Of a stretch of DNA of 64,000 bases, positions 50,443-63,778 are shown in pieces (the first letter of the stretch is position 1; each line of letters opens with the position of its first letter). Source of the stretch: Candidatus Omnitrophota bacterium (GTDB lineage Bacteria > Omnitrophota > Gorgyraeia > Pluralincolimonadales > Pluralincolimonadaceae); contig JBAZJG010000005.1 of the NCBI GenBank assembly GCA_041651455.1, positions 3,882-67,881 on the forward strand, given 5' to 3'. Under the pieces are notes generated by a model. The model worked only from the letters and a program-made list of their open reading frames with translations, ran no database searches and was not told the DNA's origin. The position numbers were made by a program, and so were the translations under genes.

Positions 50443-50471
50443 TTGACATTTCTAACCCTATGTGGTATACT
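50443..50471 (+). promoter_or_regulatory. Sigma70-type promoter of cvpA
   Basis: TTGACA (50443-50448), a 17-nt spacer, then TATACT (50466-50471). Confidence 0.6.
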
Positions 50472-58875: not shown

Positions 58876-58897
58876 GGCGCGCCGCGCGCCTTATTTT
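58876..58897 (+). terminator. Probable intrinsic terminator
   Basis: The GGCGCG-CCG-CGCGCC hairpin is followed by TTATTTT, 9 nt after the stop at 58867. The loop is tight (3 nt). Confidence 0.5.
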
Positions 58898-58942
58898 GGG
58901 CTTGCTAAATCCGACTTAAAATAGTATCATATCTATCACTTT

Positions 58943-59019
58943 GGGCCCATAGCTCAGTTGGTTAGAGCAGCTGACTCATAATCAGCGGGTCATAGGTTCA
59001 AGTCCTATTGGGCCCACCA
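58943..59019 (+). tRNA. tRNA with anticodon CAU, elongator type (Met or lysidine-modified Ile2), CCA encoded
   Basis: The cloverleaf reads GGGCCCA / TAGCTCAGTTGGTTAGAGC / GCTGA-CTCATAA-TCAGC / GGTC / ATAGG-TTCAAGT-CCTAT / TGGGCCC-A-CCA. G1:C72 is paired, so it is not an initiator. The acceptor pairs C4:G69 and C5:G68 resemble E. coli tRNA-Ile2. A candidate promoter TTGCTA-17-TATCAT lies at 58902-58930. Confidence 0.9.
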
Positions 59020-59027
59020 AATTTTTC

Positions 59028-59104
59028 GGGCGATTGGCTCAGTTGGTTAGAGCGCCACATTCACATTGTGGAGGTCAAAGGTTCGAATCCTTTATCGCCC
59101 ACCA
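59028..59104 (+). tRNA. tRNA-Val (anticodon CAC), CCA encoded
   Basis: The cloverleaf reads GGGCGAT / TGGCTCAGTTGGTTAGAGC / CCACA-TTCACAT-TGTGG / AGGTC / AAAGG-TTCGAAT-CCTTT / ATCGCCC-A-CCA. It starts 8 nt after the previous tRNA. Confidence 0.9.
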
Positions 59105-59126: not shown

Positions 59127-59861
59127 ATGCAAAAGATTAATGTTGAAGAGCAGATAGGCTACCTGAAAAAACTCCAGGCCGTCGACGGCGATATCTTCCG
59201 GCTGCGCAGGGATAGGGCGTCGAAGCCCAAGCTTATCGAGGACCTCGAAGCGCGCCGTAACGACGAGCAGGCCGCGGTCAGGGGCATCGAGGAGAAGATA
59301 AAGGCGAACCAGGTAAAGCGCAAACAGCGCGAGCTCGACCTGCAGGCGAAAGAGGACGGGGTCAAGAAGCTCCAGGCCCAGCTCTACCAGCTGAAGACGA
59401 ATAAAGAATACCAGACGATGCAGCAGGAGATAGAGGGCCATAAGGCGGACAAGTCCCGCGTCGAGGACGACATACTCGTGCTTATGGAAGAGGCGGACAC
59501 GCTGAATAGGGACCTCGCGAAGGAGAGGGCGCTTTTTGCCGACGCGGAGAAGCACCTGAACGAGGACAAGAAGGTCATAGAGGACGAGATCGCCGCGCTC
59601 GACAAACGGATCGCGGAACTCGAGGCGGAACGCGCCGCCGCGGCCGCTCAGGTCGATAAGAAGGTCCTCGCGCATTACGAGAAGGTATTGTCGGGCAGGG
59701 ACGGTGTCGCGATAGTCGCCGTAAAAGACAACGCGTGCCAGGGTTGCTTCATGAACCTTCCGCCGCAGATGATAAACGAGATCAAGATGAACGACAAGGT
59801 CATCACCTGCGAGAGCTGCGCGCGCATATTGTACATTGAGAAAGAAGCCGATGCGTCATAA
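59127..59861 (+). CDS. COG1579/DUF164-type coiled-coil protein with a C-terminal C4 zinc ribbon
   Basis: ATG 59127 follows GGGAG; the ORF-track start at 59034 lies inside tRNA-Val. A long coiled coil is followed by CQGCFMNLPPQ...ITCESCARILY. Confidence 0.8.
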   Translation: MQKINVEEQIGYLKKLQAVDGDIFRLRRDRASKPKLIEDLEARRNDEQAAVRGIEEKIKANQVKRKQRELDLQAKEDGVKKLQAQLYQLKTNKEYQTMQQEIEGHKADKSRVEDDILVLMEEADTLNRDLAKERALFADAEKHLNEDKKVIEDEIAALDKRIAELEAERAAAAAQVDKKVLAHYEKVLSGRDGVAIVAVKDNACQGCFMNLPPQMINEIKMNDKVITCESCARILYIEKEADAS

Positions 59862-60267
59862 GCGCCTCGTCATATATACGGACGGCGGTTCCCACGGTAA
59901 TCCAGGGCCGTCGGGCATAGGCGTCATCCTGTGCGCCGAAGGCGGAGAGACCGTAAAGAATATATCGAAGTATATCGGAGAGACGACGAACAACGTCGCG
60001 GAATACATGGCGCTGATATACGGCCTTCAGGAGGCCTTGATTTTAAGGGCCGATGAGGTTATAATCAATTCGGATTCGGAATTGCTTGTAAGGCAGCTGA
60101 AAAAGGAATATAAGGTAAAAGACAGGGACCTTAAGGTGCTCAACGGACAGGTAGAGCACCTGTTGTCGGGTTTCAGGAAATACGAGATAAACCATATCGA
60201 CCGTTCCCTTAACAAGGGCGCGGACAGGCTGGCCGATAAGGCCGTAGGCCAGGAGTCGCTCTTTTAG
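59851..60267 (+). CDS. rnhA: Ribonuclease HI family protein
   Basis: MRHKRLVIYTDGGSHGNPGPSGIGV..TNNVAEYMALIYGLQEAL..SDSELLVRQL...NKGADRLA carries the DEDD-type RNase H motifs. It overlaps the upstream gene by 11 nt. Confidence 0.85.
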   Translation: MRHKRLVIYTDGGSHGNPGPSGIGVILCAEGGETVKNISKYIGETTNNVAEYMALIYGLQEALILRADEVIINSDSELLVRQLKKEYKVKDRDLKVLNGQVEHLLSGFRKYEINHIDRSLNKGADRLADKAVGQESLF

Positions 60268-60276
60268 ATCACAGGA

Positions 60277-60610
60277 TTTGGGCAGGCCGGATGGTCGCTT
60301 CCAGCGATGGAGGAGGAAAGTCCGAGCTCCAAAGGACAGCGTAGCGGGTAACGCCCGTCTGCCGTAAGGCAAGGATCAGAGCCACAGTGACGAACAATCC
60401 CATGCGGGAGGCCAGACGGCCTTAACGCCGGGACGAAGTGAAACGCGGCAATCTCTACGCGGAGCAAGGCCAAATAGGCGCATCTCCTGGGGCTGTCCGC
60501 CCCAAGCCCGCAAGGGCGGATGCGCGGGTTGGCTGCTTGAGCCCCGGAGCAATCCGGGGTCTAGATGGATGATCATCGAACACAAAACTCGGCTTATAGG
60601 CCTGCCCAAA
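60277..60610 (+). ncRNA. rnpB: RNase P RNA, bacterial type A (compact)
   Basis: P1 pairs TTTGGGCAGGCC (60277-60288) with GGCCTGCCCAAA (60599-60610). The universally conserved P4 strands are GGAGGAAAGTCCGAGCTCC and ACAAAACTCGGCTTATAGG. GGTAACGCC, GAGCAAGGCCAAATAGG and GGCTGCTTGAGCC..CTAGATGGATGA are also present. Confidence 0.85.
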
Positions 60611-60630
60611 ATAATTTTCAGGAGAAGGAA

Positions 60631-61002
60631 TTGGCTATAGAAAGCCGCGCCGGCATAAGGGTTAAGATAGACGCGACCATAATGGTCGAGATCGACACGG
60701 GCATGAAGGACAAGATCCGCATAATCCGCGAGCCCCAGAAGGCCGTCGTCGTAGATATAAGCATCATCGGGCTTGGCGTGATATCGCCGATATTCCTTCC
60801 GAAAGGCGCCATTCTCGTCATTCAGCTCGATGCCTCGATATTCAATATCGGCAAACCCGCGAGGGTCATAGGAGAGGTCCGGTATTGCAGGCCGTCGAAG
60901 AACAAGGATTACAGGACCGGCGTAAAGTTCCTGGACATAGACAATGTCCTTCTGGCGAAGATAAAGGAATACGTCGAGCAGTATAAGCATAACGCGGTAT
61001 GA
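60631..61002 (+). CDS. Single-domain PilZ c-di-GMP receptor
   Basis: TTG 60631 lies 6 nt after AGGAG (60620-60624); the ORF-track ATG at 60565 lies inside rnpB. The canonical motifs are RAGIR (RxxxR) and DISIIG (DxSxxG). Confidence 0.75.
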   Translation: MAIESRAGIRVKIDATIMVEIDTGMKDKIRIIREPQKAVVVDISIIGLGVISPIFLPKGAILVIQLDASIFNIGKPARVIGEVRYCRPSKNKDYRTGVKFLDIDNVLLAKIKEYVEQYKHNAV

Positions 61003-61027: not shown

Positions 61028-62128
61028 ATGGACATAAAAACGATATTCAAATCAATGGTAGATACCGGGGCTTCCGACATCTTCTTCAAGGTGGGAAGCC
61101 CCGTTAATTTTCGCGTGGATGGGCTGCTGGTCCCGCAGGGTTCCGAAGCCCTTACCGAAAAAGACATCTCGAAAATGATCGACGATGTCCTGGGCGCGGA
61201 GCAGAAGAAGGCTTTTGAAAGGGACCGCGAGATAGATTTCGGCGTAAACTTCGAGGGGCTCGGAAGGTTCCGCGGAAGCATATTCCACCAGAACGGCCTG
61301 CCCGGCGCCGTCTTCAGGTTCATAAAGGGCAAGATAGAGGCGTTCGACCCGCTGAACCTGCCGTCGAAAGTGCTCAGCAAACTCGCGCTCGAGAAGAGGG
61401 GCCTGATACTTGTCACGGGCGCGACCGGAAGCGGCAAGTCCACGACTATCGCGAGCATAATTGAATATATCAACCAGAACCTCCCGTCCCATATAGTCAC
61501 GATCGAGGACCCGATAGAGTTTGTCTTCGAGGACAAGAGGTCTCTTGTCGAACAGCGCGAACTCGGCCTCGATACGCCGTCTTACATCGACGCGCTGAAG
61601 CATGTCATGTACCAGAGCCCGGACGTAATATTCATCGGCAACATACGCGACATGGAGACGATGGCGGCCGCCATGACAGCCGCCGAGACAGGCCAGCTCG
61701 TCGTGAGCACGATCCATTCCGTTAACGCTATACAGACCGTCGAGAGGATAGTGAATTTCTACCCGCCCCACCAGCATGAGGAGATACGCATGCAGCTCTC
61801 GCTGTTGCTGAAAGGCGTCATCTCGCAGAGGCTGATCCCCGTAAAGGAAGGCAAGGGCAGGATGCCTGCCTGCGAGGTCATGCTTAATACCCCGACTATC
61901 TCCGCCCTCATCAGGGAAGGCAAGACGAACGAACTTCTGCATTATATAGAGGAAGGCGGAATATTCGGCATGCAGACATTCGACCAGTGCCTCGCCAAGC
62001 TTTGCCTCGACGGCCGCATCTCCGTCGAAGAGGCAAAGCGATTCTGCGATTCCGTCGCGATACTCGACCTCGCCCTCAAAGGCATCAAGCGCACAGAGCG
62101 CGGCACCCCGTTCACCCCCAACCGCTAA
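61028..62128 (+). CDS. pilT: Type IV pilus retraction ATPase PilT family
   Basis: GASDIFFKVGSP, Walker A GATGSGKSTT, IVTIEDPIEF, TISALIREGK and GMQTFDQCL are present. Confidence 0.85.
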   Translation: MDIKTIFKSMVDTGASDIFFKVGSPVNFRVDGLLVPQGSEALTEKDISKMIDDVLGAEQKKAFERDREIDFGVNFEGLGRFRGSIFHQNGLPGAVFRFIKGKIEAFDPLNLPSKVLSKLALEKRGLILVTGATGSGKSTTIASIIEYINQNLPSHIVTIEDPIEFVFEDKRSLVEQRELGLDTPSYIDALKHVMYQSPDVIFIGNIRDMETMAAAMTAAETGQLVVSTIHSVNAIQTVERIVNFYPPHQHEEIRMQLSLLLKGVISQRLIPVKEGKGRMPACEVMLNTPTISALIREGKTNELLHYIEEGGIFGMQTFDQCLAKLCLDGRISVEEAKRFCDSVAILDLALKGIKRTERGTPFTPNR

Positions 62129-62236
62129 TTTAGGAGCCACTAGTCTGGTCCAGAGGGACACCCTAAGATAATAAAGGACGGAGTCTGTCCAGCATGTCCC
62201 CTCGGAGGATGGCTCCTACTACTACTATTATTTCCC

Positions 62237-62265
62237 TTGACATGAGTGGGGGAGGGGTGTATACT
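62237..62265 (+). promoter_or_regulatory. Sigma70-type promoter of the mraZ/dcw cluster
   Basis: TTGACA (62237-62242), a 17-nt spacer, then TATACT (62260-62265). It shares the CCTTGACAT...GTATACTT context with the cvpA promoter. Confidence 0.6.
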
Positions 62266-62277
62266 TTGTAGCGTCAG

Positions 62278-62317
62278 GTGGAGTAAAGTGGTTTAAAGTG
62301 GAGAATATGGTTGTGGG
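62278..62317 (+). promoter_or_regulatory. Candidate MraZ operator: phased GTGG direct repeats just downstream of the promoter
   Basis: GTGGAGTAAA GTGGTTTAAA GTGGAGAATA, with GTGG at 62278, 62288 and 62298 at exact 10-bp spacing. Further ATGG (62307) and GTGGG (62313) copies follow. AAAGTGG occurs twice. Confidence 0.5.
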
Positions 62318-62445
62318 TCCAAATTAGCCTTTGTCGGGGAGCCCTCGCAAGAGGGAAAGGCAAAGCAAAAAGGGTCCAGCCGGTCCTTATAAATTTTGGG
62401 CCCACAACCTTTTATTCTTGTCTTCGCTATTTGGGGGGATGATAG

Positions 62446-62892
62446 ATGTTTTACGGAGAATACGAACATACTATCGACAGGAAGGGCAGGATCATAATAC
62501 CCTCCAAGTTCCGCGAGGTCTTCAAGGAAAATTTCGTCGAAAAATTCTACGTGACGCGCGGCCTCGACAAGTGCCTCTTCGTTTTCACCGAGGAAGAATG
62601 GAAGCTCGCCGAGCAGAAGTTCAAAGGCATGTCTTTCACTAAAGCCGATTCGAGGAAGTTCAACCGCCTGTTCTTCTCGGGCGCCGTCGACGTCACATGC
62701 GACAAGCAGGGAAGGGTCCTGCTGCCGCAGTACCTGAAGGATTACGCGGGGATCAAGCGGGACGTGATGATAGTCGGCGTCTCGAACAGGATGGAGATCT
62801 GGTCGAAGGAGGAGTGGAACAGGTACTACGATAACGCGGCGCCTTCGTTCGAGAAGACCGCGGAGAATCTTTTGGAACTTGACAATACATAA
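62446..62892 (+). CDS. mraZ: Transcriptional regulator MraZ
   Basis: MFYGEYEHTIDRKGRIIIPSKFRE.. and a second SpoVT-AbrB repeat ..DKQGRVLLPQYLKDYAGI.. are present. Confidence 0.95.
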   Translation: MFYGEYEHTIDRKGRIIIPSKFREVFKENFVEKFYVTRGLDKCLFVFTEEEWKLAEQKFKGMSFTKADSRKFNRLFFSGAVDVTCDKQGRVLLPQYLKDYAGIKRDVMIVGVSNRMEIWSKEEWNRYYDNAAPSFEKTAENLLELDNT

Positions 62893-63778
62893 GCCCGTTC
62901 TTTTGAAAGAGGTTCTTGAGGCGCTTGAGCCCGCGCCGGGAAAGACGATAGTCGACTGCACGGTCGGCCTCGGAGGACATGCCGAGGCGATTGTTGCGGC
63001 GATATCGCCCGGAGGGCGGCTGGTCGGAATTGACAGGGACGCGCAGGCGCTTGAGATAGCGAAGGAGAGATTAGGGAGGCCCGGGGAGAGGGTAGACCTG
63101 ATCAAGGGAAGGTTTGACGAGCTCGACGCGATCTTTGAGAAGGCCGGGATAAAAGGGGCCGACGGTTTCCTGTTCGACCTCGGCGTATCCTCGATGCAGT
63201 TCGATGAGGCGGCCCGCGGGTTCAGTTTCCGCGCCGACGCCCCTCTCGATATGCGCATGGATACGGCTGCGGCAAAAGACGCCGCCGAGGTCGTCAATAC
63301 CGCGAGCGAGGCGGAGCTGGACCGCATACTCGACGAATACGGAGAGGAGAGGTTCCACCGGAGGATCGCCGCGGCGATAGTAGAGGAGAGGAAGAAGGCC
63401 CGGATAGAGACGACCGGAAGGCTTGTCGATATAATCGTGCACGCGATGCCTTATAAGATGAGGCACGGCAGGGTGCATGCGGCGACAAGGAGCTTCCAGG
63501 CGTTCAGGATAGCGGTGAACGACGAGCTGGGGGCGCTCGAAAGGGCGCTGGACCAGGCTATAGGGCTGCTGAACACGGCGGGTGTCATATGCGTGATATC
63601 CTACCACTCGCTGGAAGACAGGATAGTGAAGAACAAGTTCAGGGAAGCCAAGGCCCGAAAGATATTGGAATTGAAGAGCAAGAAGCCGGTGACGCCGACG
63701 GAGCAGGAGATAGGCGATAATCCGCGGGCACGCAGCGCAAAGATGCGCGCCGCAGCCAAAATGGCGGCAAGCGGCTAG
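62879..63778 (+). CDS. rsmH: 16S rRNA (cytosine1402-N4)-methyltransferase RsmH
   Basis: ..HKPVLLKEVLEAL..DCTVGLGGHAE..DLGVSSMQFD...SYHSLEDRIVK..NPRARSAKMR. The TTG start overlaps the mraZ 3' end. Confidence 0.9.
   Translation: MTIHKPVLLKEVLEALEPAPGKTIVDCTVGLGGHAEAIVAAISPGGRLVGIDRDAQALEIAKERLGRPGERVDLIKGRFDELDAIFEKAGIKGADGFLFDLGVSSMQFDEAARGFSFRADAPLDMRMDTAAAKDAAEVVNTASEAELDRILDEYGEERFHRRIAAAIVEERKKARIETTGRLVDIIVHAMPYKMRHGRVHAATRSFQAFRIAVNDELGALERALDQAIGLLNTAGVICVISYHSLEDRIVKNKFREAKARKILELKSKKPVTPTEQEIGDNPRARSAKMRAAAKMAASG

Follow-up and report, generated by a model that had tools for sequence, protein, structure and literature searches.

A conserved structured RNA in the mraZ leader of Candidatus Omnitrophota, a candidate cis-acting element of the dcw operon

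The control of dcw expression beyond repression by MraZ is still poorly understood, and the UpsM/StsR system is the only well-studied case of control at the RNA level. The locus described here raises the question of whether a further, RNA-based element could be at work in another bacterial group. It lies in a 64,000-nucleotide stretch of DNA (the window) from a Candidatus Omnitrophota genome assembled from a metagenome, where about 100 nt between the MraZ operator boxes and the RBS of mraZ can form an elaborate secondary structure. An initial annotation of the window proposed that this segment is a cis-regulatory RNA or a processing site rather than random leader sequence, and we asked whether its structure is conserved in related genomes, and which of the possible functions best agrees with the evidence.

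At the end of the window, a gene for a type-IV-pilus-type (pilT-like) ATPase (61028-62128) is followed by a 317-nt intergenic region, mraZ (62446-62892, + strand, with the start codon at 62446-62448), rsmH (62879-63778, +), which overlaps mraZ, and an ftsL-like ORF. The MraZ protein (Pfam PF02381) is 100% identical to the one annotated in a metagenome-assembled Candidatus Omnitrophota genome, and 99-100% identical to those of two of the related loci collected for this study (L001 and L002). The mraZ/dcw promoter (62237-62265, +) is composed of TTGACA (62237-62242), a 17-nt spacer, and TATACT (62260-62265), with 11 of 12 consensus matches, and was seen in nearly all related loci, whether the element was present or not. 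From its position, transcription probably starts near 62272.

Three MraZ operator boxes come next (62274-62303, +), with GTGG at 62278, 62288, and 62298. They fall within the first ~30 nt of the predicted transcript, are kept in all related loci, and, with their six-nucleotide spacers, reproduce exactly the published MraZ operator pattern (PMC12957436). The canonical MraZ-repressed promoter has the same organization, with three GTG(G/T) boxes and 6-nt spacers (PMC12957436), and in E. coli a 5' UTR of 38 nt; the leaders described here differ in that ~140 nt of structured RNA are added between the boxes and the RBS. The RBS of mraZ (GGGGGGA, 62433-62439, +) stands ahead of the start codon, and the element (62309-62409, +) occupies roughly +37 to +138 of the predicted transcript. 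With only 36 nt between the end of its closing stem and the ATG, another promoter would not fit, and no further promoter-like site was detected before mraZ.

In the MFE fold, the element is a structured RNA of ~100 nt, closed by a helix (P1) around a three-way junction, with the helices P2, P2b, and P3 inside. P1 had been noted as a 14-bp stem with one G-U pair, formed by GTTGTGGGTCCAAA (62310-62323) and TTTGGGCCCACAAC (62395-62408); these coordinates are right, and the repeat finder extends the stem to 15 consecutive bp, one of them G-U. Its 5' strand (62309-62323, +; GGTTGTGGGTCCAAA) was found by the fold and the repeat finder, and its 3' strand (62395-62409, +; TTTGGGCCCACAACC) by these two and the type-A alignment described below. 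The conserved core (62327-62343, +; GCCTTTGTCGGGGAGCC) holds the 5' strand of P2 and an unpaired G-run, GGGG(A)G. The P2 helix (62329-62365, +) encloses an internal loop and the hairpin P2b (CCCTC-GCAA-GAGGG, 62342-62355, +), which was also recovered by the fold exactly as first described, and whose loop is of the GNRA type in most type-A members.

P2 can be formed in two mutually exclusive registers, in which 62329-62335 pairs with 62359-62365 (register B) or 62327-62332 with 62356-62361 (register A). The initial annotation had pointed to this ambiguity, as 62328-62332 could pair either as CCTTT with AAAGG (62356-62360) or, within GCCTTTG, with CAAAGC (62361-62366). Both partners are present, and the MFE fold uses the second, pairing 62327-62335 with 62359-62366 around the bulged C62329. 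Register B is the one chosen by RNAalifold, and it is also kept by the covariance model in the second form of the element. Two features had escaped the first description: the hairpin P3 (62371-62388, +; AGGGTCCAGCCGGTCCTT), found in both the MFE fold and the terminator scan, and a conserved U-rich tract directly 3' of P1 (62410-62424, +; TTTTATTCTTGTCTT). The scan flagged P3 together with ATAAATTTTG as a terminator (62370-62388); this tail is not U-rich in type B, and P3 lies inside P1, so that P3 is read as an internal hairpin, not as a terminator.

Folding of 99 nt of the + strand gave −43.8 kcal/mol, far better than the −27.9 ± 3.4 kcal/mol of 200 dinucleotide-shuffled controls (z = −4.72, 0/200), and the same fold was retained when the whole leader (62272-62460) was folded. 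In the full-leader fold, the A-rich 5' flank additionally pairs with the U-tract, adding 7 pairs to P1 across a small internal loop. An RNA from the minus strand was rejected, since its fold is weaker (z = −2.2 only) and the G-U pairs of the + strand become C-A mismatches. The P1 helix by itself is only modestly unusual: a helix of at least 15 uninterrupted pairs, G-U allowed, arises in 23 of 1000 shuffles of the intergenic region, so that the case for the element rests on comparative conservation and covariation. This ~2% is among the points that would agree with a nonfunctional relic, either an inverted-repeat insertion (MITE-like) or a protein-bound DNA palindrome, kept by recent descent.

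To collect homologs, we examined 80 Omnitrophota mraZ loci, 15 of which have the 13-mer GCCTTTGTCGGGG in the leader; in the others, the distance from the MraZ boxes to the ATG is 0-30 nt. A pattern scan that took no account of genomic context returned, from metagenome contigs, 11 true copies, all of them upstream of mraZ, and five chance matches. Through additional relatives of MraZ we obtained six more leaders, these of a second form (type B), and five without the element. The family defined in this way has 25 distinct sequences in two narrow clades, 18 of type A (the window included) and seven of type B (L016, L162-L165, L167, and L168). The type-A alignment used throughout is the one made with the covariance model, as the MAFFT version misaligned four divergent members. 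Searched with this model, each locus has exactly one copy, always between the MraZ boxes and mraZ, and no further copies were found in the 64-kb window or in ~1.1 Mb of collected loci. In viral and metagenome contigs, the core motif also turned up by chance in 65 cases, none of which gave a covariance-model match. A dispersed repeat or miniature transposable element was rejected on the basis of the single copy in the window and per locus. Likewise, the lack of dispersed copies and the distance of 71 nt between the arms speak against the relic. Among the leaders in which the core motif is absent, that of L053 extends for 197 nt before the mraZ ATG, with a predicted fold of −72.8 kcal/mol, and L169 has a 64-codon ORF (980-1174) between the MraZ boxes and mraZ.

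In the 18 distinct type-A sequences, which all form the full three-way junction, standard pairs fill 98.2% of the pair cells, and no more than 60% once the partners are slid by one to three columns. Changes on both sides of a pair were counted in 26 cells, compared with 7.7 ± 2.5 in shuffles, and none of 500 shuffles reached 26. These two-sided changes map to the P1 pairs 1-110, 10-101, 12-99, and 14-97 and to the P2b pair 41-47, which switches between C-G and U-A in five sequences. The P2b loop itself varies among GCAA, GUAA, GUGA, GAGA, and GAAA, and is non-GNRA in four sequences. P2 and P3 (the latter with 99% of its cells paired) show only one-sided, wobble-compatible changes, and the two P2 registers are paired in 97.6% and 97.2% of the cells, with covariation for neither. 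RNAalifold gives the same junction, from an input alignment that had been fitted to that structure. G-U pairs are frequent on the + strand, with U-G at pair 11-100 in 9 of 18 sequences and at pair 29-56 in all 18, and, as judged from the alignment, these many pairs mark the + strand RNA as the functional molecule.

The 13-nt core (GCCUUUGUCGGGG) is identical in all 25 distinct family members. At the four-fold degenerate sites of mraZ, type-A members share an identity of 0.37-0.64 with one another, and the window has 0.25-0.42 with type B; that the core has remained invariant while these synonymous sites are saturated implies selection on it. On this comparative evidence, the structure of the element is real and under selection, and the proposal that it is something other than random leader is borne out both by the fold relative to shuffles and by the compensatory changes that keep the stems in homologous mraZ leaders. 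The relic is largely refuted by the same covariation, as its pairing would not be expected to be maintained by compensatory changes, nor its core to be invariant next to saturated synonymous sites; moreover, its G-U pairs mean that the repeat is not symmetric as DNA. Although a distribution restricted to two clades, the absence from most Omnitrophota mraZ leaders, and the losses described below would agree with it, we regard this explanation as very improbable.

Type B preserves the same core with an unrelated P1 sequence, in which (A)UGGAUGCGYY-R-UGUGA pairs with UURCA-GG-CGCAUCCAU to give a helix of 16-18 bp. This P1 is 98.4% paired and has two double changes; the compensatory changes are of the kinds G-C to A-U and U-G to U-A. 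The type-A covariance model aligns type B from end to end, with P2b deleted and the type-B hairpin placed on P3. That hairpin, homologous to P3, is formed by six different complementary stems, and five of the six members in which it is present have a GAAA, GCAA, or GAGA loop; L164 is without even this variable hairpin. The GNRA hairpin P2b, initially taken as a feature of the element, is therefore present in the window and missing in the type-B relatives, a comparison by which it is an accessory module. Common to every member are the long closing stem, an A-rich linker and the core with its unpaired G-run, an A-rich segment, and the U-rich tract after the stem. The 5' strand of the type-A P1 also includes a fourth GTGG (62313-62316 in the window), 11 nt past the third MraZ box and out of phase with the 6-nt spacers; as it is missing in type B, it is probably not part of the operator.

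In a neighbor-joining tree of MraZ plus RsmH, type A forms one clade and type B a separate one, and three lineages without the element (L157, L015, and L160) are nested within the type-A clade. These nested lineages, together with the separate position of type B, suggest that the element is either old, dispensable, and repeatedly lost, or else was transferred. The leaders of L015 and L160 have a short GTGGAGGAAG(T/C)ATTCCAC hairpin after the boxes, which might be a collapsed remnant of P1.

The identity of the element could not be derived from any described family. Neither type A nor type B matched any of the 4227 models of Rfam 15, including riboswitches, self-cleaving ribozymes, and the mraW motif (RF01746), at E ≤ 10, and ARAGORN found no tRNA or tmRNA. 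The mraW RNA motif of Actinomycetota is an orphan structured RNA in the 5' UTR of the mraZ/mraW (rsmH) operon and is transcribed in Corynebacterium (PMC3890552, PMC4046766). Both are orphan conserved structured RNAs in the leader of the same operon, but they differ in phylum, sequence, and architecture. In the literature that we searched, a structured mraZ leader has not been described for Omnitrophota. The element is best explained as a structured leader RNA that acts in cis on the mraZ-rsmH-ftsL... (dcw) operon and is specific to certain lineages of Omnitrophota, and we rate it as a new orphan RNA motif among the cis-regulatory structured leaders and attenuators.

Two more identities were considered for parts of the segment. 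A leader peptide attenuator was rejected, because the frame and length of the ORFs differ among relatives and L007 has none of at least 20 codons; the initial view that the segment has no real ORF thus holds. Many type-A members have TAG, TCG, or TTG in place of the ATG inside the core, and in type B the G-run differs by 1 nt, which shifts the frame. The loop between P2 and P2b of type A was compared with the kink-turn, in the consensus of which tandem sheared G.A and A.G pairs come after a 3-nt bulge. The GGG bulge and the 1b.1n G.A pair fit, but position 2n is A or U, not G, in all members, so that the loop is at best a rare kink-turn variant, and the whole module is absent in type B.

P1, a stable G-C-containing stem of 15 bp in the window, is followed within 0-2 nt by a U-rich tract. 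Such a tract (at least five T in eight, 0-2 nt from the stem end) is present in 25 of 30 leaders, compared with 3.9% of background windows, and in type B an invariant TTTTT (U5) directly follows the stem. The ordinary upstream terminators of related genomes have the same stem-plus-(A)U-run form. With its G-C-containing stem, U-rich tract, and A-rich 5' flank in a 5' leader, the element resembles an intrinsic terminator or attenuator, and the U-tract, its pairing with the A-rich flank, the terminator-like form, and the lack of room for another promoter favor an attenuator over the other readings. We tentatively propose, with a confidence that approaches an even chance, that the element is a leaky or regulated intrinsic-terminator-like attenuator in the leader of the dcw operon; termination, read-through, and the existence of an effector are what we infer from the observed features.

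According to this proposal, transcription would begin at the conserved promoter near 62272 and the three MraZ boxes would be copied first. The next ~100 nt would then fold into P2 with its invariant G-rich loop or bulge and the apical hairpins P2b and P3, with P1 closing the structure; the prefolded apical domain would draw the distant P1 strands together and so nucleate P1. P1 and the U-tract would act as an intrinsic-terminator-like attenuator, part of the transcripts ending at ~62410-62424 and leaving a leader RNA of roughly 140-150 nt, and the division and cell-wall genes would be expressed only from transcripts that read through. The core, AAAAU-GCCUUUGUCGGGG, would be the probable docking site of a putative factor, be it protein, small RNA, or metabolite, by which the frequency of P1 formation is tuned.

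Several observations weigh against the attenuator. The U-tracts are short or interrupted, as in UUUUAUUCUU, and five of the 30 leaders miss five T in eight. The loop of a normal intrinsic terminator has 3-8 nt. Here, a branched 71-nt domain, the three-way junction, takes its place, and as this is outside that range, P1 was not called by the terminator scan. No competing antiterminator was identified, as by-eye inspection for pairing between the core and P1 gave a few weak single-member pairs and no conserved pairing. A P1 of 15-18 bp is so stable that its modulation by an effector is hard to explain, and the losses nested in the type-A clade (L157; L015 and L160) argue that the element is dispensable. 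Within the subclade of the window, the G-rich RBS is a further possible pairing partner of the pyrimidine tract, which offers another reason for the composition of this tract. Sequestration of the RBS by the element itself was rejected, since the dominant partners of the RBS in ensemble folds are never nucleotides of the element and vary among relatives.

The length of P1 would be accounted for if the element served in RNA processing or stability, with P1 as a site for the double-strand-specific RNase III or a protective structure; cleavage by RNase III would remove the 5' segment encoded by the operator and set the half-life of the dcw mRNA. P1 has 15-18 bp, or ~22 bp with the pairing of the A-rich and U-rich flanks in the full-leader fold, its length is kept though its sequence is replaced between types A and B, and in Rhodobacter the dcw leader is controlled through cleavage by RNase E (PMC8266604). 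However, processing would leave unexplained both the invariant unpaired core and the U-rich composition after the stem, the pairing added by the flanks is weak, with many G-U and A-U pairs, and not conserved in sequence, and the element, which begins ~37 nt into the predicted transcript, is not a protective hairpin at the 5' terminus. We consider this function unlikely.

The conserved junction, on the other hand, could be the pocket of a riboswitch or protein-binding switch, in which the invariant G-run would bind a metabolite (e.g., a cell-wall precursor or a nucleotide signal) or a protein encoded by the operon, and thereby alter termination or translation of dcw. A three-way junction, covarying helices, strictly conserved unpaired nucleotides, an exclusive tie to one operon, the lack of a match to any known class, and the two exclusive registers of P2 would all be in agreement with a switch. 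The registers had been pointed out from the beginning as mutually exclusive pairings; both partners are compatible with the alignments, while covariation favors neither. Against a switch, modules are dispensable (P2b in type B, P3 in L164), which is unusual for a pocket built by a junction, P1 is far longer than typical aptamer P1 stems, and the phylogenetic range is very narrow, with nested losses. In addition, no conserved alternative pairing to an expression platform was found, and the element never pairs with the RBS in ensemble folds. On balance, a switch of this kind seems to us rather unlikely, if less so than processing.

In a variant that joins sensing to termination, the element would be the sensing part of a riboswitch, or of an attenuator that responds to a protein, belonging to a new class and gating the whole dcw operon. 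The invariant junction containing GUCGGGG would bind a growth or envelope signal, with a peptidoglycan precursor, a nucleotide second messenger, RsmH, or MraZ as candidates, and binding would decide whether the P1 terminator is formed. We regard this variant as doubtful; if true, it would add a layer of RNA control above the repression by MraZ.

The attenuator without such a specified signal, which we continue to prefer, has a parallel in Rhodobacter sphaeroides, where the 268-nt 5' UTR of dcw contains an intrinsic terminator that ~1 in 100 transcripts pass, while termination gives rise to the sRNA UpsM (PMC5089854). Cleavage of UpsM by RNase E, triggered by the sRNA StsR, tunes dcw mRNA levels (PMC8266604), and leaders of the UpsM type have been stated to be exclusive to Rhodobacteraceae (PMC5089854). 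The Omnitrophota element has the same position, between the only dcw promoter and mraZ, so that read-through is predicted to be needed for mraZ. In both cases, a long structured leader replaces the usual short one, ends in a hairpin and U-tract, and is restricted to one lineage. They differ in phylum and in size (a 268-nt UTR and 206-nt sRNA compared with a ~175-nt leader and ~100-nt element), and whereas termination, ~1% read-through, dependence on Hfq and RNase E, and targets in trans are experimental for UpsM, the features given here are based on sequence. We set the element beside UpsM by description, as an apparently unrelated analog, and claim analogy, not homology.

By the same parallel, the terminated leader of ~140-150 nt might itself be a trans-acting sRNA that base-pairs with mRNAs through the core. 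The order of promoter, structured RNA, and hairpin with U-tail, the invariant 13-mer capable of being single-stranded, the A-rich linkers, and the direct precedent at the same genomic position (PMC5089854; PMC8266604) are what one would expect of such an sRNA. Yet a search of the ~3 kb downstream in each genome gave no conserved target with complementarity, and the core is mostly buried in P2 in the predicted fold. The best recurring site, in rsmH, was rejected as a target of the core, as it is a conserved coding motif, ATR(S/T)FQ, that is equally complementary in genomes without the element. A trans-acting role is thus decidedly unlikely in our view.

If the attenuator is correct, a second, unrelated terminator-like dcw leader in a distant uncultured phylum suggests that gating of this operon by RNA evolved more than once. 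With a 13-nt core, a covarying closing stem, and optional apical hairpins, the motif is compact enough for tests of termination, processing, and sensing, and the orphan family could be deposited in RNA databases.

Some neighboring features of the locus were also recorded. Immediately past the stop codon of the pilT-like gene is an imperfect long hairpin (62131-62218, +; arms TAGGAGCCA and TGGCTCCTA; −36.2 kcal/mol, z = −2.1). In L002-L006, the arms of the equivalent hairpin differ from these yet are complementary to each other, and 6-8 consecutive T come next; for this reason the hairpin is probably the terminator of the upstream gene; in the window, the T-run has decayed to TACTACTACTATTATTT. 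Its similarities to the element are short and at chance level (GTCCAGCATGTCC compared with GTCCAGCCGGTCC). Between mraZ and rsmH, type-B genomes and some neighbors have an ORF of 55-57 codons with no Pfam match (L163 1954-2121, L164 1950-2117, L165 2022-2189, L167 1971-2138, L169 1647-1820, and L161 1030-1203). The clade of the window, in which mraZ and rsmH overlap, has no such ORF.

A scan of the whole window at the Rfam gathering thresholds detected only an RNase P RNA and two tRNAs. An RNase HI-like gene (59836-60267) directly precedes the RNase P RNA (bacterial class A, 215 bits; 60279-60612, +). In type-B genomes, the pair of RNase H gene and RNase P RNA (the latter at L163 773-1092 and L165 813-1126) is immediately upstream of the mraZ promoter, and in the window's clade an ORF (60565-61002) and the pilT-like gene (61028-62128) intervene between the RNase P RNA and that promoter. 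The former ORF overlaps the 3' end of the RNase P RNA by ~48 nt, and its true start is therefore probably later than listed. The two tRNA genes are adjacent (58943-59016 and 59028-59101, +; Rfam tRNA, 75 and 73 bits), and upstream of them are a terminator-like GC hairpin (58876-58890) and a promoter-like site (58902-58930). Another promoter-like site (50443-50471, +), TTGACA-17-TATACT with a TG extension, equals the mraZ promoter, and just upstream of it lies a divergent promoter-like site on the opposite strand (50427-50399, −).
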